Of a stretch of DNA of 51,907 nt, positions 2,364-12,179 are shown piece by piece (the stretch's first letter is position 1; every line of letters begins with the position of its first letter). The stretch comes from Gemmatimonadota bacterium (lineage in GTDB: Bacteria > Gemmatimonadota > Gemmatimonadetes > Gemmatimonadales > Gemmatimonadaceae), in the NCBI GenBank assembly GCA_031418115.1, contig JANOWT010000101.1, forward strand, positions 1 to 51,907, given 5' to 3'. Position numbers and translations under genes: made by a program. The notes beneath the pieces were generated by a model. That model was not told where the DNA came from. It ran no database searches and saw nothing but the letters and a program-made list of their open reading frames with translations.

Positions 2364-3581
2364 ATGCCTTCGATCCGATTGCGTCCAATGCTCGTGCTCG
2401 GACTCGCGCTCGGTCTCATCCTCGCACCCTTTATCGCCTCCGCGCAGGCCGACCCGACCGCCGCGCAGGCACCGAAGCCCAAGACGTGGAAGTTCGCCCC
2501 GCGATTCGTCGTCGGTGCCGAGTACGACGACAACGTCTTCCTGCTCCCGGCCAGCAAGCGCCCCGATCCGGCAGCGCCGTCACCAGCGGAGCTTCTCAGC
2601 AGCCGCTACACCGGGATGGAGTCCGCCGCTGACCTGATCACCACGGTTGTGGCCACGCTGGCCATTCGTGGAGCGGGTCTCGGTGGTCGGGACCTCACGC
2701 TCACGCCTGAGTTCGACTACGAACTCTACGCCCGCAGTGGCGAGCGAAGCAACGCGGCATTCGGGCTCTCGGTCGAACAGCTCCTGCGCAAGGAAGGTCG
2801 TGTCCGCATCCGCGCACGGCTCCAACCCAGCTACTTCTCGCGCAACTACCTCTCCGATGCGGTGGATGCGAATCTCGACGGCGACATCCAGGCAGCCGAG
2901 CGCGTCTATTCTCGCGGCGAGTACTCTGAATCCGACCTGCAAGTCGACTACCGCCGTCGGCTCTCGAAGGCGAGCACTTCGCATCCGTTCGGCGCCTGGC
3001 TCCTCGTTGGTGCAGGCTTCGCGGACCGCACTCATGACGCACCGTTCGCCGCGCGCGATTTCAGCGGCATCACCGGCACGGCGCGGTTGCAGTTCGACCT
3101 GCCTCACGGCGTTGAGCTCGTGACATCCTACGATCTCGCGTCGCTCGGAAGTCCCCGGACGACGCAGGTGATCCTGCTCGACGAGCCCGTCTACGGCCAA
3201 GACCTGAACGGCAACGGCAACGCTACCGATCTGAACGCGCGTGCGGTCCGCACGGTCGACCGCTCACGCGTCGAGCAAGCGATCGGGGAGACCGCACGGT
3301 TCAACTTCACGAAGGCGACGGACCTCGAACTATCGGTGGAGTATCGCTGGCGCACGTTCACGTCAAACGAGCCGTACGATGTGGCCAACAATGGGCGCCG
3401 CGACCACCGGATGCAGGTGGGAGTCGAGACGTCGCATCGCGTCAACGGCATCGTTCGGATCTTCGGCGGCGGCGTGTACGGAAAGCAGAACCTGAATCGC
3501 CGCATCGACCTCGGAGCCGAGGGTGCGGTGGACGACTACAACAAGCTGCAGTTGCACGCCGGCCTCCGACTGACGCGCTGA
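2364..3581 (+). CDS. Outer-membrane beta-barrel protein, putative polymer-export porin-like
   Basis: Sec signal peptide (..ASA|Q), first strand ending EYDDNVF, alternating amphipathic strands, terminal strand LHAGLRLTR, two DxDxDG-like loops. Confidence 0.75.
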   Translation: MPSIRLRPMLVLGLALGLILAPFIASAQADPTAAQAPKPKTWKFAPRFVVGAEYDDNVFLLPASKRPDPAAPSPAELLSSRYTGMESAADLITTVVATLAIRGAGLGGRDLTLTPEFDYELYARSGERSNAAFGLSVEQLLRKEGRVRIRARLQPSYFSRNYLSDAVDANLDGDIQAAERVYSRGEYSESDLQVDYRRRLSKASTSHPFGAWLLVGAGFADRTHDAPFAARDFSGITGTARLQFDLPHGVELVTSYDLASLGSPRTTQVILLDEPVYGQDLNGNGNATDLNARAVRTVDRSRVEQAIGETARFNFTKATDLELSVEYRWRTFTSNEPYDVANNGRRDHRMQVGVETSHRVNGIVRIFGGGVYGKQNLNRRIDLGAEGAVDDYNKLQLHAGLRLTR

Positions 3582-4698: not shown

Positions 4699-6465
4699 AT
4701 GGAGGCCACCCCGCGCCGCCCGCTGCGCCGCATCATCGAGATGCTGCGTCCGCATGCGGCCGGTGAGGCGCCTGCGTTCGCTAGGGGTGCGCTCCTCGGC
4801 CTCTTGACCGTCGTGTTGCACGTGCTGCGTCCGTGGCCGCTGAAGTGGATCGTCGATGGCCTTGGCGGCACTCCGGTAGCGGATCCGCGCTGGCTCGTCC
4901 TCGCCTTCATCGGGCTCGCCGCGGCGGGCTCCGTCGCGGCGTATGGTCAGGCGATGATCCTCAACGGACTCGGCAACCGGATCCTCTATCGATTCCGGGA
5001 GCGCCTGTTCAGTCATGTCCTGCGGCAGCCGTTGGCCTTTCACGAGACGCGCGAAGTCGGCGAGCTGATGACGCGGATCGTCTACGACACGACACGTCTG
5101 CGGCGCGGCCTCAATGGGATGCTCGTGCGGATCGTGCAGACGATCGCACTCTTCGTCGCCTCGATGGCGGCGCTGCTCTGGATCGACCCGCGACTCGCCG
5201 GGGTGCTGCTCGCCGGCGGAGGTGTCGCGTTGCTCATGATGAAGCGTCGCGGACAGCGGATCGCCGCAGTCGCGAAGAAGCAGAGAACCAAGGAGGGTCT
5301 GCTCGCCGCACTCGTCGGCAGCGAGCTCATGGCGGTGCGCGAACTCCAGGCCTTCGGGTTCGGCGGCAGTGCGGTCGCTGCGCGATTCGCTGCGCGCAAC
5401 GGCCGCAGCATGCGCCAGGAACTGAAGCTGCAGCGACTCTCCCTTGGACTCTCGCTGCGCGTGGATGTCGCGGTCTCGGCGAGCATCGCGGTCGCCATGT
5501 GGCTCGGCGCCTCGGGCGTCCGCTTCGGGGAGCTCACCGCGGGCGACCTCGTGCTCTTCCTGTCGTATGCGCTGGCCCTGCGCGCGCCGTTCGCGGACTT
5601 CGCCGTAGCGACCGCGCGGATCGGCCGGACCTTCGCCTGCGCCGAACGGCTCGACCGCATCATGCGCCGCGGGGTCGCGATCGCGGATCGGCCGGACGCG
5701 GTCGGCGCGGACGGCATCCAGGGTGCGCTACGCTTCGAGAAGGTCTCGCTGTTGATGCCCAAGCGCAGGCGGACCGACCGGAAGTGGGCGCTCGAGAAGT
5801 TGGAGTGCGACTTCCCAATCGGTCGGCGCGTCGCAATCGTCGGTGGGAACGGGGCCGGCAAGTCCACGCTGCTCTCGCTGGTGCTCCGCCTCGCCGATCC
5901 CTCCCGTGGCCGGATCCTCCTCGACGACCGCGACCTGCGAGACTACGCGCTCGAACCGCTCCGGCGTCGGATGAGTGTGGTCTTCCAGGACAGCGTGCTC
6001 ACCGGCGTGAGCGTCCGGGACAACATCGCGCTGGGCGACCAGAGCGCGACGCTCGACGCCGTTCGCCTCGCGGCGGAGCAGGCGGGCGTCGCACGGTTCA
6101 TCGAACGCCTGCCGCAGGGCTACGACACGATCGTCCGCCGAGGCGGCGACCTCTTCTCGGGCGGCGAGCGGCAGCGCATCGCACTGGCGCGCGCGCTACT
6201 GCGCGACGGTCGAGTCTGGCTGCTCGACGAGCCGACCACCGGACTCGACCACCGGTCGGCGCTCGAGCTCACGGACCGGCTCCTCGAGGTGACTCAGGGC
6301 CGCACCGTGCTCTGGGTGACGCACGACCCGGAACTGCTCGCACGGATGGACCTCGTGCTGGAACTCGGAGCCGGCCGCGTTCGGTTCTGCGGCACTCCGT
6401 CGGACTTCGCGGGTCGGGCTGCACCCAGCGCGCCGACGCCGATCAACAGCTCACCGGAGCACTGA
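4699..6465 (+). CDS. ABC exporter, fused TMD+NBD (MsbA/PglK-like)
   Basis: N-terminal TM helices, Walker A GGNGAGKST, Q-loop VFQD, signature FSGGERQR, Walker B LLDE, H-loop VTH. Confidence 0.93.
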   Translation: MEATPRRPLRRIIEMLRPHAAGEAPAFARGALLGLLTVVLHVLRPWPLKWIVDGLGGTPVADPRWLVLAFIGLAAAGSVAAYGQAMILNGLGNRILYRFRERLFSHVLRQPLAFHETREVGELMTRIVYDTTRLRRGLNGMLVRIVQTIALFVASMAALLWIDPRLAGVLLAGGGVALLMMKRRGQRIAAVAKKQRTKEGLLAALVGSELMAVRELQAFGFGGSAVAARFAARNGRSMRQELKLQRLSLGLSLRVDVAVSASIAVAMWLGASGVRFGELTAGDLVLFLSYALALRAPFADFAVATARIGRTFACAERLDRIMRRGVAIADRPDAVGADGIQGALRFEKVSLLMPKRRRTDRKWALEKLECDFPIGRRVAIVGGNGAGKSTLLSLVLRLADPSRGRILLDDRDLRDYALEPLRRRMSVVFQDSVLTGVSVRDNIALGDQSATLDAVRLAAEQAGVARFIERLPQGYDTIVRRGGDLFSGGERQRIALARALLRDGRVWLLDEPTTGLDHRSALELTDRLLEVTQGRTVLWVTHDPELLARMDLVLELGAGRVRFCGTPSDFAGRAAPSAPTPINSSPEH

Positions 6466-6466
6466 G

Positions 6467-7690
6467 ATGCAAGCCGTCATACTCGCCGCGGGAATGGGCA
6501 GCCGCCTCAACTCGATGACTGGCGGCGGCTCCAAGGCGCTCGTCGAGATCGGTGGTCGCCCGCTGCTGTTGCACACGCTCGAGGCCCTCGCCGACCACGG
6601 CATCGGGCCCGTGCTCGTGATCGTCGGTCACGAAGCGCATGCGTTGCAAGAGGTCATCGGCGACCGCGCTGAGGTCCTGCTCAACGAGCGCTTCGCAGAG
6701 ACCAATAGCCTCTACTCGCTCTGGCTGGCACGCGACTGGATCAAGGGTCCCTTCGTCCTGCTCAACTGCGATCTGTTCTTCGACCCGGCTATCCTCGACG
6801 ACCTGCTCGAGCAGACCGGCAACGTGCTCGCGTACGACTCGACGTCATCCCGTGGGCGCGAGCAGACGAAGGTCGCGCTGAAGGAGCGGCGCGTCGTCGA
6901 CCTTGGCAAGGATCTTCCGACGAACTCGGCTCGCGGCGAGAGTCTCGGCATGATCAAGTTCGACGCCGAGGGTTCCCGCGCGATGATCGCGACGGCCAAG
7001 CACCTCATCGAAGATGGGCAGGAGAATGCGTGGGTGATCGAGGCGACACGCAGTGTCTGCAAGGAGATCACCCTCTACGGACTCAACATCGCCGGCAAGG
7101 CCTGGACCGAGATCGACTTCCCCTACGATCTCGACGTCGCGCGGCGCGAGGTATGGCCGGTCATCTGGCGTGGACGCTGGCGGAAGCAGGTGTACTGGAA
7201 GCGCACGCGGTGGGCGGCGATCGCCGCGGCCGTCGCGATGATCGCGCTGCTCGGCTGGTTCGCGAGCACGCAACTCGGGCCCGGCAGCGTCGATTGGGAG
7301 ACCGTGGAACTCGGTGGCGCCGAGATGGTGCGTGTCGTCCGCGTCGACGGTGAGCAGCGGTGGTGGAACGCACCGATCGACGTTCCGGTCACCGCGAGCG
7401 TTGAAGGCGCCGAGGCCGACATCCAACTGCGTCTGGTGCATCCCGACGGCAGTCCGGACTCGTTGCGGTTCGTCGTCGCGATCACGATCGACGGCCATCC
7501 CGCCGATTGGCGTGCGCTCACCTCACTGCCGGACACGAGCGCACATCTGGGCGATCTGCGATTGGGCGACCGCGACCGTATCCGGCTCGAGCTCGGCCCG
7601 GGCAAGCACACGGTGGTGGTCATGCTCGCAGAGGGCCACGGACAGCGCATGCTCGTGCGCGTGAGGCAGCCGGTCGTGCGCGAGGACTGA
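6467..7690 (+). CDS. LicC/PntC-like phosphocholine/phosphonate cytidylyltransferase fused to a TM helix and C-terminal beta-rich domain
   Basis: AVILAAGMGSRL, K in GSKAL, NERFAETNSLYSL, LNCDL, WTEIDFPYDL. These are followed by a basic stretch, a hydrophobic helix and about 140 aa of beta-rich sequence. Confidence 0.85.
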   Translation: MQAVILAAGMGSRLNSMTGGGSKALVEIGGRPLLLHTLEALADHGIGPVLVIVGHEAHALQEVIGDRAEVLLNERFAETNSLYSLWLARDWIKGPFVLLNCDLFFDPAILDDLLEQTGNVLAYDSTSSRGREQTKVALKERRVVDLGKDLPTNSARGESLGMIKFDAEGSRAMIATAKHLIEDGQENAWVIEATRSVCKEITLYGLNIAGKAWTEIDFPYDLDVARREVWPVIWRGRWRKQVYWKRTRWAAIAAAVAMIALLGWFASTQLGPGSVDWETVELGGAEMVRVVRVDGEQRWWNAPIDVPVTASVEGAEADIQLRLVHPDGSPDSLRFVVAITIDGHPADWRALTSLPDTSAHLGDLRLGDRDRIRLELGPGKHTVVVMLAEGHGQRMLVRVRQPVVRED

Positions 7691-7762: not shown

Positions 7763-8998
7763 ATGACTGCCCCCCTCGCGTCCCGCTCGCTCAACCCATT
7801 CCGGACCCTCGCCAAGTACCGGAACTTTCGGATCTTCTGGCTCGGGCAGACGACGTCGCTCGTCGGTTCGTGGATGCAGACGGTGGCCGTAGGATGGACC
7901 GCGCTCGAGCTCACGAACGACGCCTTCATGGTCGGGCTCGTCTCCGCAGCGAACACCTTCCCGATCCTCATCTTCTCGCTCCCCGGCGGCGTCGTCGCCG
8001 ACCGCAACGAGAAGTTGCGCGTGGTGCGGATCGCGCAGGCGCTCATGCTGGCAGAGGCGGCCGCGCTCTGGGCGCTCTCGTTCACGGGGCATCTCACCAT
8101 CGGTTGGTTGCTCGCGCTCTCGCTCTTCGGCGGGCTGCTCGCCGCCTTCGAGATCCCTGCGCGCCAGTCGCTCATGGTAGAGCTGGTCGGCAAGGAGGAC
8201 ATCGCGCAAGCGATCGGCCTCAACTCCACCGGCTTTAATCTCGCGCGCGTACTGGGCCCGAGTGTCGCGGCCGTCGTGATCGCACGACTCGGCGTGTCGT
8301 GGACCTTCGGACTGAATGCCGTCAGTTACCTCGCCGTGCTCGTCGGTCTCGCGATGATCACGTTGCCAGAGCGGCGCGCGGCGGCGCGGCAGGGCGTGAG
8401 TCACGTGCAGGGAATGCGTGAGGCGATCCGCCACGTCCTCGACACGCCGCCGCTGCCCATGCTCCTCGCCATCGCGACGGTCTTCTCGGTGCTAGGCGTG
8501 CCGGTGATCACGCTCTTGCCGGTGATCGCGCGCGATCAACTCGGGCTCGGCGCCGACGGCTACGGCGCGCTCATGGCCTGTCTGGGACTCGGCGCGGTGG
8601 TGGGCGCGCTCGCGATCGCCGCCACGGGCGGCGGTGCACAGCGCGGAAAGGTATTCCGCGCTGCGTCGTTCAGCTTTGCGTTGCTGCTACTCGTCTTCTC
8701 GTTCGTGCGGGAGCCTGTGCTCAACGGCGTGTTGCTCTTCGCGATCGGTGTCGCGATGATCCTCAACAACGCACTCGTGAATGCGCGGTTGCAGGAGCTC
8801 GTCCCCGATGCGATCCGTGGGCGCGTGCTCTCGCTCTACGTCATGGTCTACGTCGGTGGTTCCCCGATCGGCTCGTTCGTCGGCGGCTGGGTGGCGAGCG
8901 TGGCCGGCGTGGACTGGGCGATCGGAGGCGGGGCGGTGCTGATGCTACTCTTCGCGCTCTGGGCGTTCCGGCGGCATCCCATGCTTGCGGCGCACTGA
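7763..8998 (+). CDS. MFS transporter (12 TM, DHA3/MFS_3-like)
   Basis: RNFRIFWLGQ..S..GSWMQ, GGVVADR, PARQS, NLARVLGP, RGRVLS motifs. Confidence 0.92.
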   Translation: MTAPLASRSLNPFRTLAKYRNFRIFWLGQTTSLVGSWMQTVAVGWTALELTNDAFMVGLVSAANTFPILIFSLPGGVVADRNEKLRVVRIAQALMLAEAAALWALSFTGHLTIGWLLALSLFGGLLAAFEIPARQSLMVELVGKEDIAQAIGLNSTGFNLARVLGPSVAAVVIARLGVSWTFGLNAVSYLAVLVGLAMITLPERRAAARQGVSHVQGMREAIRHVLDTPPLPMLLAIATVFSVLGVPVITLLPVIARDQLGLGADGYGALMACLGLGAVVGALAIAATGGGAQRGKVFRAASFSFALLLLVFSFVREPVLNGVLLFAIGVAMILNNALVNARLQELVPDAIRGRVLSLYVMVYVGGSPIGSFVGGWVASVAGVDWAIGGGAVLMLLFALWAFRRHPMLAAH

Positions 8999-10408
8999 CC
9001 GGCCGTACTGCCCGGTCTCCGACCGCGAGAGTTTCCGACGCGCGACGAGCGCTTCGAGTACGAGTTCGCACGCCACCACTGAGTCGGCGTCATCGGTCAC
9101 GCCGAGCCCGGCCGCAGTGATCTGATCGATCAGTCCGGGCACGGTCGCGAAGCCTGCGCGCGCCACCGCGGCGCTCGCATCGTCACTCACCTGCAGCGCC
9201 TGCCCGCGGTCGAACCACATCACGATCTCGTCCAGGTCGAGCGTGTTGTCGCGCTCGGTGAGCGTCGCGTCGGCGGCGCGGCGGATCAACTCGCGTGCGA
9301 TCACCGCTCCGCCGATCAACTCGCCCTCGTATTCGAGTTCGATCTTGCCTGTGATCGCCGGCAGGGCCGCGTAGATGTCAGCGAGGCGGGGGACGATCTC
9401 CTTCTCGCCCAGTCGCACCGCGCGACGCTCGGCGTTGGAGATCACGTTCTCGAGCAGCGAGATCGAAAGTCGCTGTGAGACACCCGACCTCTGGTCGATC
9501 CGCTTCTCCTGCCGCGCCTCGAAGGCGACACGCTCCGCGACTTCCGAGACGATCTCGGGCAGGCGCAGCGGGAGTCCGTCGCGCTTGGTCCACGCTTCCT
9601 GCTGCGTGATCGTCATCGCGAGGTCGACCGTCGCCGGATAGTGCGTGATGATCTCGCTGCCGATCCGGTCCTTGAGCGGCGTGATGATCTTGCCGCGCGC
9701 TGTGTAGTCCTCGGGGTTGGCCGTGAACGCAAGGACCACGTCGAGCGCGAGGCGCACCGGGTAGCCCTTGATCTGCACGTCGCCTTCCTGCATCACGTTG
9801 AACAAGCCCACCTGCACCTTGCCGGCGAGGTCAGGGAGTTCGTTCAGCGCGAAGATCCCGCGGTTGGCGCGCGGGAGCATGCCGTAGTTGATCGAGAGCT
9901 CGTCCGAGAGCAGGTGACCGCCGCGCGCCGCCTTGATCGGGTCGAGGTCGCCGATCAGGTCGGCCACCGTGACGTCCGGCGTCGCGAGCTTCTCCACGTA
10001 GCGTTGATCGGGTGTGAGCCAAGCGATCGGCGTCTCGTCACCCATCGTGGCGAGGCGATCGCGGCCGTACTTGCTGATCGGCGCGAACGGATCGTCGTTG
10101 GTCTCGCTTCCGGCGATCACCGGCAGCTGCGGGTCGAGCAGTGTGGTGAGTGCGCGCAGGATGCGCGACTTGGCCTGGCCGCGGAGTCCGAGCAGAATGA
10201 AATGGTGCTTGGAGAGCAGCGCGTTCACGATCTGCGGCATGACCGTGTCCTCGTAGCCGAGGACGCCCTTGAAGAGCGGCTTACCGTCGGCGATGCGTGC
10301 GAGGAGGTTGGCGCGGATCTCGTCGCGGACCGAACGGCCGCGGCGTTCCGGCGCGCCGAAGGGAGAGCGCGCGAGGGCGCCGAGGGTGGTGGGAAGCGAA
10401 GTCGTCAC
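8945..10408 (-). CDS. Magnesium-chelatase (ChlI)/MoxR-like AAA+ ATPase
   Basis: Walker A variant GLRGQAKS, ANRGIFALNELPDL, TANPEDYT, PLKDR. Start trimmed to GTG 10408; a TATACT -10-like box lies at 10433-10438. Confidence 0.88.
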   Translation of the reverse strand: MTTSLPTTLGALARSPFGAPERRGRSVRDEIRANLLARIADGKPLFKGVLGYEDTVMPQIVNALLSKHHFILLGLRGQAKSRILRALTTLLDPQLPVIAGSETNDDPFAPISKYGRDRLATMGDETPIAWLTPDQRYVEKLATPDVTVADLIGDLDPIKAARGGHLLSDELSINYGMLPRANRGIFALNELPDLAGKVQVGLFNVMQEGDVQIKGYPVRLALDVVLAFTANPEDYTARGKIITPLKDRIGSEIITHYPATVDLAMTITQQEAWTKRDGLPLRLPEIVSEVAERVAFEARQEKRIDQRSGVSQRLSISLLENVISNAERRAVRLGEKEIVPRLADIYAALPAITGKIELEYEGELIGGAVIARELIRRAADATLTERDNTLDLDEIVMWFDRGQALQVSDDASAAVARAGFATVPGLIDQITAAGLGVTDDADSVVACELVLEALVARRKLSRSETGQYGRSVRRKHGMPPERPEREE

Positions 10409-10478
10409 GGGCGTCTCTGGAAGGTCTGTCAGAGTATAACGCGCGGACCGAGTAAGCAGTTCGCCGGTCCGACCGGCG

Positions 10479-12179
10479 TCAGAGCTTGAACCGCTGCACC
10501 GCGGCGTCGAGATGGGCCGCCACTGCCTGGAGGCTCCGGGCACCGTCCGCCATCCGGTGCACACCCGCCGCCTGCTCCTCGTTGAGCGCGCTCAGTTCCT
10601 GAGCCGTCGCGGCGTTCTCCTCCGCGGTCGCGGCAAGCGCCCCGACGACGTCCGAAAGGTGCGCGGCGCGCTGACCCTGTTCGCCCGTCGAGCGACCGAT
10701 GCGCGTCGCGGACTCAGCCGACTTGTGCGCCTGCTCATCCACCGCCGCGAGCACGGCTTCCGAATCCCCGAACGCATTGCGCCCCTCACGCACCGCGTCC
10801 TTCACGCGATCGAGGCGTTCGCCGATCTCGTCACCCGTGTCCTCGACCTCGATCGCGAGTGTCCGGATGTGCGAGAGCGCGGCCTGGCTATCGCGCGCGA
10901 GCTTGCCCACCTCGTCGGCGACGACAGCGAAGCCGCGTCCATGCTCGGCCGCGCGCGCTGCTTCGATCGCGGCATTGAGTGCGAGCAACTTGGACTGCGT
11001 GGCGATCCCCGCGATCACGTCGGTGAACTCCCGGATGCCGTGAGACTTGGTCGCCAGCGCCTCGAGCGACGGCGCAGTTTCGGCCGCAGCCGTGGCGATC
11101 TCGTCCATACGCGAGGCGACGATCGCCATCGCGCGTCGGCCCTGCGCAGTTCGCTCCTCGACGGCGCGCGCCGCCGATACCGTCAGCGCGCCCTCGCGCG
11201 CGATGTCCTGAGCGTGCGACGCCACCGCCTGAGATGCGTCGAGAGCCTCGGTGACGCTCGTCGTCTGGTCGGCGGCGGCCGACGCGATCCCCTGCGCCGC
11301 AAGCGCGATCTCGAACATCGCGGTGTTCAACTGCTCGGTGCCGTCCGCGAGTTCCTTCGCGGTGGCGGTCATGGTCTTGGAGCCTGCGGCGATGTCGGTC
11401 ACGACCGCGCGGAGCGCATCACGCATGCGGCGGAACGAGTCCGCGAGGTCACCGATCTCGTCCTCGCTCTGGTGGGTGACCTCCACCGAGAGGTCGCCGT
11501 TGGCGATCCGCGCCGCCGCTTCCTCCAGCCGACGGATCGGTCGTACGATGGCCGAGCGGACGATGAGCGGCGCGCTCGCGAGGATGGCGAGCAGCACGAT
11601 CAGCGCCGCGAGGCTCGTGCGTCGCCGATCCGCGACGAGCGCTCCTTGGGCTTGAACGAGCGCCTCCGCCTCGGACTCGAGGTTCGCCACGATCCGATCG
11701 ATGAGGTCGGTGGGCGCGCGGTCCTGACCACGCACCAAGCTGTCGACCTGGAACGGATTCCGGCCCTCCGCACCCTCGAAGCGTGCCAACGCGACCGCGT
11801 ACGCAGCGTCGAGTTCCAGGTACGCCCGACGGAAGGCGCGCACCTGTGCATGGAGCGAGTCGCTCGTCGCGCCCGACGCGAGCGTGTCGGTCAGCGCGAG
11901 CACGTCGACCCTCAGCGCCGCGAACTGTTGCGTGTACCGTACCCGGTCGCGCGCGACAGCGCCGCGCAGCAGGATGTTCTTCCATTCCTGCACCTGCTTC
12001 TTGAACGCGACCTGCATCTCGCGCGCGACCGATTGCTCGCGGATCTGGCGATCGAGGATGCCGCGGTAGCCGCGGTCGAGCTCGTTGAGCGAACCGAGCA
12101 GGTAGAGTGAGGTGAGTGCGGCGGCGACGATCGCGGCGCCGAGGATGGCGTACAGCTTGGCGCCGAGCGACAGACGCAG
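10479..12179 (-). CDS. Methyl-accepting chemotaxis protein (TM1-4HB sensor-TM2-HAMP-signalling domain); start codon uncertain
   Basis: IATQSKLLALNAAIEAARAAEHGRGFAVVADEV hairpin tip and HAMP (P..L....RIANGDL..EDEIGDLA). The frame extends upstream of ATG 12017 through TM1 (LRLSLGAKLYAILGAAIVAAALTSLYLL). Confidence 0.88.
   Translation of the reverse strand: MRLSLGAKLYAILGAAIVAAALTSLYLLGSLNELDRGYRGILDRQIREQSVAREMQVAFKKQVQEWKNILLRGAVARDRVRYTQQFAALRVDVLALTDTLASGATSDSLHAQVRAFRRAYLELDAAYAVALARFEGAEGRNPFQVDSLVRGQDRAPTDLIDRIVANLESEAEALVQAQGALVADRRRTSLAALIVLLAILASAPLIVRSAIVRPIRRLEEAAARIANGDLSVEVTHQSEDEIGDLADSFRRMRDALRAVVTDIAAGSKTMTATAKELADGTEQLNTAMFEIALAAQGIASAAADQTTSVTEALDASQAVASHAQDIAREGALTVSAARAVEERTAQGRRAMAIVASRMDEIATAAAETAPSLEALATKSHGIREFTDVIAGIATQSKLLALNAAIEAARAAEHGRGFAVVADEVGKLARDSQAALSHIRTLAIEVEDTGDEIGERLDRVKDAVREGRNAFGDSEAVLAAVDEQAHKSAESATRIGRSTGEQGQRAAHLSDVVGALAATAEENAATAQELSALNEEQAAGVHRMADGARSLQAVAAHLDAAVQRFKL

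Follow-up and report, generated by a model that had tools for sequence, protein, structure and literature searches.

Why is a cytidylyltransferase of the LicC/PntC fold joined through a predicted membrane segment to a domain that should lie on the other side of the membrane? The question is posed by a 407-residue protein of a Gemmatimonadota bacterium (GenBank assembly GCA_031418115.1), encoded in contig JANOWT010000101.1, of which we analyzed a stretch of 51,907 nucleotides, hereafter the window. We consider in turn whether the fusion is genuine, what the enzyme is likely to make and what the outer domain might do.

The fusion gene and its predicted membrane topology

The 407 codons of the reading frame contain no internal stop (Table 1). 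A search limited to proteins of 223-713 aa gave 714 relatives, and the best 120 of these comprised 119 full-length fusions of 405-417 aa plus one partial gene. Given 119 full-length relatives the fusion is real and an assembly artefact was ruled out; the fused gene is genuine and conserved. A first-pass annotation had noted that its proposal would fall if homologues were always split or if the tail were cytoplasmic, and neither was found to be so. Contigs (not reads) from four runs agree weakly with this, showing no insertion or deletion; X2 comes from what may be the source study, X4 covers the stretch but could itself be the source DNA, and the X10 pieces leave 7223-7239 unbridged. The fusion was still present at about 38% identity in locus scans, and no split form was found in the operon loci. 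Named relatives belong to Gemmatimonadota, with distant ones labelled Planctomycetota and Deltaproteobacteria; "choline kinase" and "phosphocholine cytidylyltransferase family" are the names that the sources give to relatives. Neither a promoter nor a terminator consensus was found.

Table 1 Features of the fusion gene, its operon and related loci (window positions unless a locus is named)
Feature	Position	Strand	Evidence or remark
Whole gene, bitopic nucleotidyltransferase (P0001), 407 aa	6467..7690	+	ORF and 119 full-length relatives
Nucleotidyltransferase domain, residues 1-232, PntC/LicC/IPCT fold	6467..7162	+	PF12804, structure matches
Trp/Arg-rich juxtamembrane helix, residues 233-248; predicted to run on unbroken from the last enzyme helix into the membrane helix	7163..7210	+	AlphaFold2
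Predicted single transmembrane signal-anchor, residues 249-268, likely uncleaved	7211..7270	+	Hydropathy, A-x-A test
Unnamed jelly-roll beta-sandwich, residues 270-407, predicted periplasmic	7274..7687	+	Model, fold search, conservation
First operon gene: signal peptide and predicted outer-membrane beta-barrel, weakly EpsL-like	2364..3581	+	TIGR03014, barrel Pfams in relatives, synteny
TagB/TagF-family CDP-polyol:polyol-phosphate transferase, 364 aa	3602..4696	+	PF04464, E 2e-18
MsbA-like ABC exporter, membrane domain and ATPase, motifs intact here	4699..6465	+	1 nt before the target gene
ABC protein without ATPase domain	L082:4824-5954, L083:2791-3912		Actinomycetota-type loci
Optional Cys protein	L007:5212-5577, L008, L052:1615-1977, L064:6713-7075, L142:1634-1960		

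The motif WTEIDFPYDL occupies residues 213-222 and the stretch WRGRWRKQVYWKRTR residues 234-248; an uncharged run then begins at W249 (nt 7211), and 139 aa remain beyond residue 268. The best 19-residue Kyte-Doolittle window of the protein scores 1.95, at residue 250. Across 119 relatives the segment is rich in Ala and of only moderate hydrophobicity; every one of them has 16 or more uncharged residues in a row, with a 19-residue score of at least 1.2 in 105/119 and at least 1.6 in only 59/119, and their mean K+R count is 8.9 before the segment and 2.2 after it. At the level of sequence the protein thus has the marks of a bitopic inner-membrane protein (one helix, a positive-inside charge distribution and an exported outer domain), which strongly argues for the N-in/C-out topology that had been proposed, with the enzyme inside and the tail outside. 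Since relatives of the tail follow signal peptides or lipoboxes, the outer domain is very likely periplasmic. A strict A-x-A cleavage site was found in 4/119 fusions, and in 1/16 of another set, versus 35/60 secreted tandem relatives (described below); a looser test let nearly all pass (116/119, 14/16 and 55/60) and was thus uninformative. The rarity of the strict site in the fusions makes the helix a likely uncleaved anchor, and release of the domain by signal peptidase was set aside on the same test.

Distant matches to the end motif of the enzyme numbered 31, of which one was a false motif. Among the 30 enzyme-bearing representatives kept, the 19-residue score was at least 1.5 in 26 and 1.3-1.4 in two, and the other two (P0159 and P0244) had no membrane helix. 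The enzyme motif of P0238 and the partial match P0190, which has cadherin-like repeats, were set aside as false matches. P0159, in which the enzyme and outer domain lack the membrane helix and are followed by a signal of lipoprotein type and by HEAT-like repeats, stands as one sequence only and is possibly a gene-calling join.

The enzyme, its likely substrate and the operon

Residues 1-232 matched PF12804 (E 4e-18). The best sequence match was 6pd1 (E 2e-21), with 1jyk and 2xme also found, and Foldseek placed the domain on 6pd2 with an rmsd of 2.0 A, whereas identity to the PntC, LicC and IPCT structures is only 21-27%. The elements of the GT-A-like fold of LicC/PntC/IPCT-type cytidylyltransferases are present, namely the GxGxR loop, catalytic Lys, Asp and ExD metal ligands (conserved as G9-x-G-S-R13, K23, D102, E215 and D217), and the metal and nucleotide residues are invariant. 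The closest structures and the CDP-using neighbour strongly suggest that the nucleotide is CTP.

The amine site is formed by E104 and E196 in PntC and by D105 and D192 in LicC, as described in part of Rice et al. (PMC6697681). In the fusion N100 and V190 stand where PntC has E104/E196; N100 is invariant, and the second site, taken as the hydrophobic residue after W189 with an alignment register uncertain by one residue, is hydrophobic family-wide. As both amine-binding acids of LicC/PntC are replaced, choline or aminoethylphosphonate is an unlikely substrate. No PEP mutase scored over the cut-off in six operon genomes tested (91-99% complete), no TagD did so in five, and no choline kinase was found in the bacterium's own genome (91% complete). 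Hence, in the strict sense, the earlier assignment to a LicC-type (choline) or PntC-type (aminoethylphosphonate) enzyme is not supported. Inositol-phosphate synthase was not found in the own genome (G000) or in 5/6 congeners (genus g1); it is present in 4/5 operon genomes tested and also in 279/301 phylum genomes (the tally for this enzyme takes in one unpublished genome, G157, on which no other result depends), and was dropped as a substrate clue because it is near universal in the phylum. There are no precursor genes in the operon, so that a housekeeping polyol phosphate would be likeliest, and with moderate confidence we take the substrate to be a non-amine polyol phosphate from central metabolism. 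Glycerol-3-phosphate is favoured because it fits the PF04464 partner, and CDP-glycerol is the best guess for the product, at roughly even odds. The known glycerol-phosphate cytidylyltransferases are of the TagD type, a different fold.

The gene closes an operon in the order barrel, transferase, ABC exporter, cytidylyltransferase, with gaps of 20, 2 and 1 nt. The barrel, of about 400 aa with almost no periplasmic extension, matched TIGR03014 far below the cut-off (E 7e-6); two conserved Asp/Asn-rich loops in it are like calcium-binding Dx[DN]xDG motifs. The transferase scored 66.9 bits against PF04464 (cut-off 22.1). Its H218 aligns to TagF H584, and its FHG (104-106) resembles WHG by motif only; the PF04464 family and its histidines are described in part of PMC11666461.

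Across 50 loci, several of them duplicates, the barrel, transferase and ABC genes were all present in 13/13 loci having at least 4.6 kb of upstream DNA, and an ABC gene lay beside the fusion in 41 and was missing in two of the 43 loci with 600 bp upstream; none was found in G182. Five distant loci (L074, L076, L077, L078 and L080) encode an ABC protein whose signature motif, Walker B and switch have degenerated. An MFS gene (7763-8998) was rejected as a member of the system because, of 31 loci that extend far enough downstream, only 4 have it. In the loci read, the operon was found to contain neither an OPX nor a co-polymerase gene. The operon likewise has no initiating transferase or lipid-anchor gene, and for this reason the transferase may add just one unit instead of building a polymer, which would suit its TagB-like size. 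There is a strong case that the cytidylyltransferase product would feed the TagF-like transferase, and the four-gene cluster likely makes and exports a teichoic-acid-like surface polymer without the usual export adaptors.

Some loci carry, between barrel and transferase, an optional secreted protein of 110-120 aa with several conserved cysteines and no family (Table 1), which is absent from the window. In the window a VWA-domain gene and what looks by eye like its AAA+ chelatase-like partner (890-2173 and 8945-10564, minus strand) flank the operon and MFS gene, a block that looks inserted between them; L006 and L003 carry further insertions nearby.

The distribution of the fusion is patchy, with full-length genes in 5/301 phylum genomes and in 8/401 of a larger sample. 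The transferase was found in exactly the same 8/401 genomes, and the barrel in all eight plus three more; the eight genomes are kin and the genes linked, so this co-occurrence is no statistical test. In the three additional genomes, which lack the outer domain, the barrel heads a different operon. Hence, the barrel does not need the outer domain, and barrel plus ABC have the look of an export module that can be combined with various enzymes. In these three (L158:9574-16170, L159 and L160; G047, G226 and G210) the barrel family and a related ABC protein flank DUF1611-like P-loop and M36-peptidase-like/CapA (PGA_cap) genes, a second, unexplained cargo for the module.

Soluble forms of the enzyme also exist. 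L082 and L083 encode a soluble 255-260-aa enzyme with the same transferase, close relatives of which are named Actinomycetota, and an ABC membrane domain without ATPase (Table 1). L083, the only one of these loci bounded on both sides (a tRNA marks one limit), has no barrel, and L082 stops at a contig edge; in L092 the soluble enzyme and transferase lie in another context. In a quick tree that also held 18 other LicC-like proteins, the soluble and bitopic enzymes grouped together as a single clade (SH-aLRT 99).

The predicted outer jelly-roll domain and its relatives

Modelled alone (pLDDT 94.7) the outer domain is predicted to be a jelly-roll, in agreement with the beta-rich, CBM-like tail foreseen in the first-pass annotation. 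Its fold matches are jelly-roll domains at Z 8-9.6 and 4-17% identity, including CEX esterase (6hfz; Z 9.6, rmsd 3.7 A, 124 aligned), CBM35 (2w1w_B; Z 9.4, rmsd 3.1 A, 116 aligned), BcsB (5eiy_B; Z 8.6, rmsd 3.2 A, 110 aligned), CBM51, CE2 accessory domains and, by Foldseek, Eph receptor domains. The jelly-roll is a common arrangement, and the matches include proteins that do not bind carbohydrate; as a shared jelly-roll at Z 8-9.6 shows no function, none can be inferred from the fold. The domain shares the fold of CBM6/35/51, but its sequence places it in none of the named CBM families. None of 39 domain rows matched a Pfam family at E < 0.002, the PDB gave no sequence match, and atlas matches were all under 0.9.

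The outer domain is under purifying selection, with dN/dS of 0.10-0.22 over six pairs (0.06-0.12 for the enzyme). W299, R322, G379, R398 and R400 are invariant in 39/39 rows and R369/R371 nearly so, and strand alternation suggests that the conserved residues share one sheet face. Net charge averages -3.9.

A profile built from the 39 rows matched 447 representatives. Among the best 150 of these many were proteins of about 300 aa carrying two tandem copies, and of the M-starting matches of 265-345 aa in the same 150, 60/66 have a hydrophobic N-terminus, and most hold the domain twice in tandem. The profile of this tandem family matched the fusion domain at 99.3% in hhalign. The family (P0174 and relatives, alignment A4) is secreted and, in contrast to the fusion domain, strongly basic (+15); its named members are from Eisenbacteria and Hydrothermota and its atlas clusters from Fidelibacterota and Bacteroidota. 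In P0170 the PgsW protein of poly-gamma-glutamate systems (TIGR04332, 317 bits) is fused to the tandem domain, a link that consists of this single sequence, in which the fusion may reflect adjacent genes. A PgsW search of the own genome gave no match, but the control likewise matched in no genome. No longer fusions of the tandem family scored, and a plasmid search with P0174 and P0197 gave no match.

Lipobox proteins with a single distant copy of the domain were found in 11/13 genomes of one family. In L125-L132 (e.g. L130:4860-5657) this lipoprotein sits in a conserved housekeeping cluster, adjoining yicC-, gmk- and coaBC-like genes (names by eye). Three secreted proteins of 1,500-2,000 aa (P0197, P0236 and P0263) carry several domain copies and helical repeats; by eye they end in a C-terminal barrel, a BcsC/PelB-like layout, with no Pfam or NCBIfam match. 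The barrel-like tail of P0236 was considered as kin of the window's barrel and had no detectable relation to it (0.1%).

Possible roles of the fusion and known counterparts

Our preferred reading, to which we give a probability of about 45%, is that the fusion provides precursor at the export site inside and handles product outside. The enzyme would make a CDP-polyol, most likely CDP-glycerol, at the cytoplasmic face of the inner membrane, the neighbouring TagB/TagF-like transferase would use it, the ABC protein would move the anionic polyol-phosphate product outward, and the arginine-bearing jelly-roll domain would bind the product and hand it on before exit through the barrel. We favour this reading because outer-domain relatives are exported, the operon and co-occurrence are kept, and R322, R398 and R400 are invariant. 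The PgsW fusion was counted in its favour because poly-gamma-glutamate is another anionic polymer, as was the soluble enzyme found with the same transferase and no barrel at the bounded L083. Against it, the outer domain is net acidic, its fold matches include non-carbohydrate binders, and the PgsW link is one protein; the operon has no acceptor or anchor gene, its ABC protein is missing in two loci and ATPase-degenerate in five, and the barrel occurs elsewhere without the outer domain. Moreover, TagD-type enzymes have a different fold, P0159 and P0244 do without the membrane helix, and inositol-phosphate synthase is present in most operon genomes tested, albeit also in most of the phylum. We suggest only tentatively that the outer domain might bind product as a membrane-proximal relay, with the fusion mainly co-localizing supply and export.

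It is also conceivable, if unlikely, that the protein is a transmembrane feedback sensor, in which periplasmic product binds the outer domain, shifts the long helix and tunes precursor synthesis to export; such a sensor, which the first-pass annotation had raised in carbohydrate-binding form, can coexist with the preferred reading. AlphaFold2 predicted a single helix (residues 219-269) that starts right after the metal-binding E215/D217 motif and crosses the membrane, followed by a 10-strand beta domain (277-402). Residues 233-249 showed no amino-acid change (dN = 0) in 5/6 close pairs, tighter than the enzyme, and the full-length best matches stay within 405-417 aa. However, the linker of distant relatives, although basic, varies in sequence and length, the invariant P231 should kink the helix, and soluble relatives share both helix and proline. 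The membrane residues are poorly conserved (57% column identity), the pTM of 0.63 for the full-length model leaves the domain orientation not fixed, the outer domain is elsewhere free-standing and secreted, and a basic Trp-rich interface is expected for any anchor.

The fusion might instead be passive, read-through having joined a once-separate secreted gene such that its signal peptide now anchors the enzyme and the domain keeps an envelope role of its own, without product contact. The linker and hydrophobic segment do resemble a signal peptide, the domain follows one in the tandem relatives, soluble orthologues exist, and the lipoprotein relatives lie among housekeeping rather than polymer genes. 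We nevertheless regard this origin as rather improbable, as several phyla retain the fusion down to about 38% identity, no split form was seen in the operon loci, and the domain evolves under purifying selection and has invariant arginines. A wider proposal seems distinctly doubtful: that diderms export a teichoic-acid-like polyol-phosphate by an ABC protein and a lone barrel without OPX or co-polymerase, that the precursor enzyme is the periplasmic receiver, switched across the membrane by product load, and that the outer domain is a new polyanion-binding family common to poly-gamma-glutamate systems.

A direct trans-envelope adaptor, with the outer domain docked on the barrel and bridging to the ABC exporter, had also been suggested in the first-pass annotation and now appears very unlikely. 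The barrel is present in all eight fusion genomes, the operon lacks an OPX or co-polymerase gene, and the large secreted relatives pair several domain copies with a barrel-like C-terminal part (by eye). Nevertheless, only about 8 residues separate the helix from a 138-residue jelly-roll that is far shorter than the span of Wzc-Wza (roughly 160 A in the relevant part of PMC9601211), the helix is apparently uncleaved, with no conserved site at which cleavage could release the domain, and the barrel hardly extends into the periplasm and also serves operons without the outer domain. Complex prediction with barrel (A5) and outer domain (A3) scored 0.26 and 0.00 against a mark of 0.32; controls were not folded, making this evidence neither way. 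Least probable is an ordinary LicC/PntC role in activating phosphocholine or aminoethylphosphonate for surface decoration: PntC and LicC are the best structural and sequence matches and database names agree, but the amine-binding acids are replaced by N100 and a hydrophobic residue throughout the family, and PEP mutase and choline kinase were not found in the tested genomes.

In the literature searched (few subscription papers; titles and abstract starts) no description of this architecture or operon was found, and the parts available of PMC1391919, bioRxiv 10.1101/2025.11.11.687785 and PMC8542988 hold nothing specific to this system. Each part of the protein has a known counterpart, and the combination and the outer-domain family appear to be undescribed. 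The work defines an unannotated domain family (447 representative matches, no Pfam) and an enzyme architecture mislabelled in databases as choline kinase or phosphocholine cytidylyltransferase, and may reveal that CDP-glycerol is made by a second enzyme fold. For now the chemistry counts as a known type, and the host organisms are uncultured. The four-gene operon, at 5.3 kb, is small enough for whole expression, so that two questions become testable: whether an ABC exporter and a barrel are enough for a diderm to export a teichoic-acid-like product, and whether a nucleotide-activating enzyme can be controlled from the periplasm.

PntC of Treponema denticola (6pd1/6pd2), LicC of Streptococcus pneumoniae (1jyk) and IPCT of Archaeoglobus fulgidus (2xme) share the fold and the catalytic metal and nucleotide residues of residues 1-232, whereas the 407-aa protein adds a membrane helix and outer domain and replaces the amine-binding acids. 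In IPCT-DIPPS (4mnd), too, a cytidylyltransferase with this fold is joined to a membrane part. Its partner, however, is a multi-pass CDP-alcohol phosphotransferase, whereas the 407-aa protein has one helix and a non-catalytic-looking outer domain, and its transferase is a separate TagF-like gene; the score against NF041135 was 91 bits (cut-off 580), and no CDP-alcohol phosphotransferase domain or neighbour was found. The jelly-roll fold is shared with BcsB of cellulose synthase and with CBM35, CBM51 and CE2 accessory domains, at 4-17% identity and with no profile match. BcsB sits in the periplasm, anchored to the membrane, as the partner of a polymer synthase; unlike the outer domain, it is not fused to a precursor enzyme. 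In its exporter the operon differs from teichoic acid and group 2 systems, being MsbA-like where these have TagGH or KpsMT. Wall teichoic acid synthesis (TagB/TagD/TagF) and teichoic-acid-like group 2 capsules (CpsA, Cps3D) also bring together a PF04464 transferase, a cytidylyltransferase and an ABC transporter, as a portion of PMC11666461 describes, but the cytidylyltransferase here is not of the TagD type and the operon has no Kps, OPX or co-polymerase gene. The composite OPX/beta-barrel translocon EpsX/EpsY and EpsL-type barrels likewise have a barrel that stands alone, of about 400 aa, within a cluster for a surface polymer, whereas the operon described here encodes the barrel without a short OPX or co-polymerase partner.
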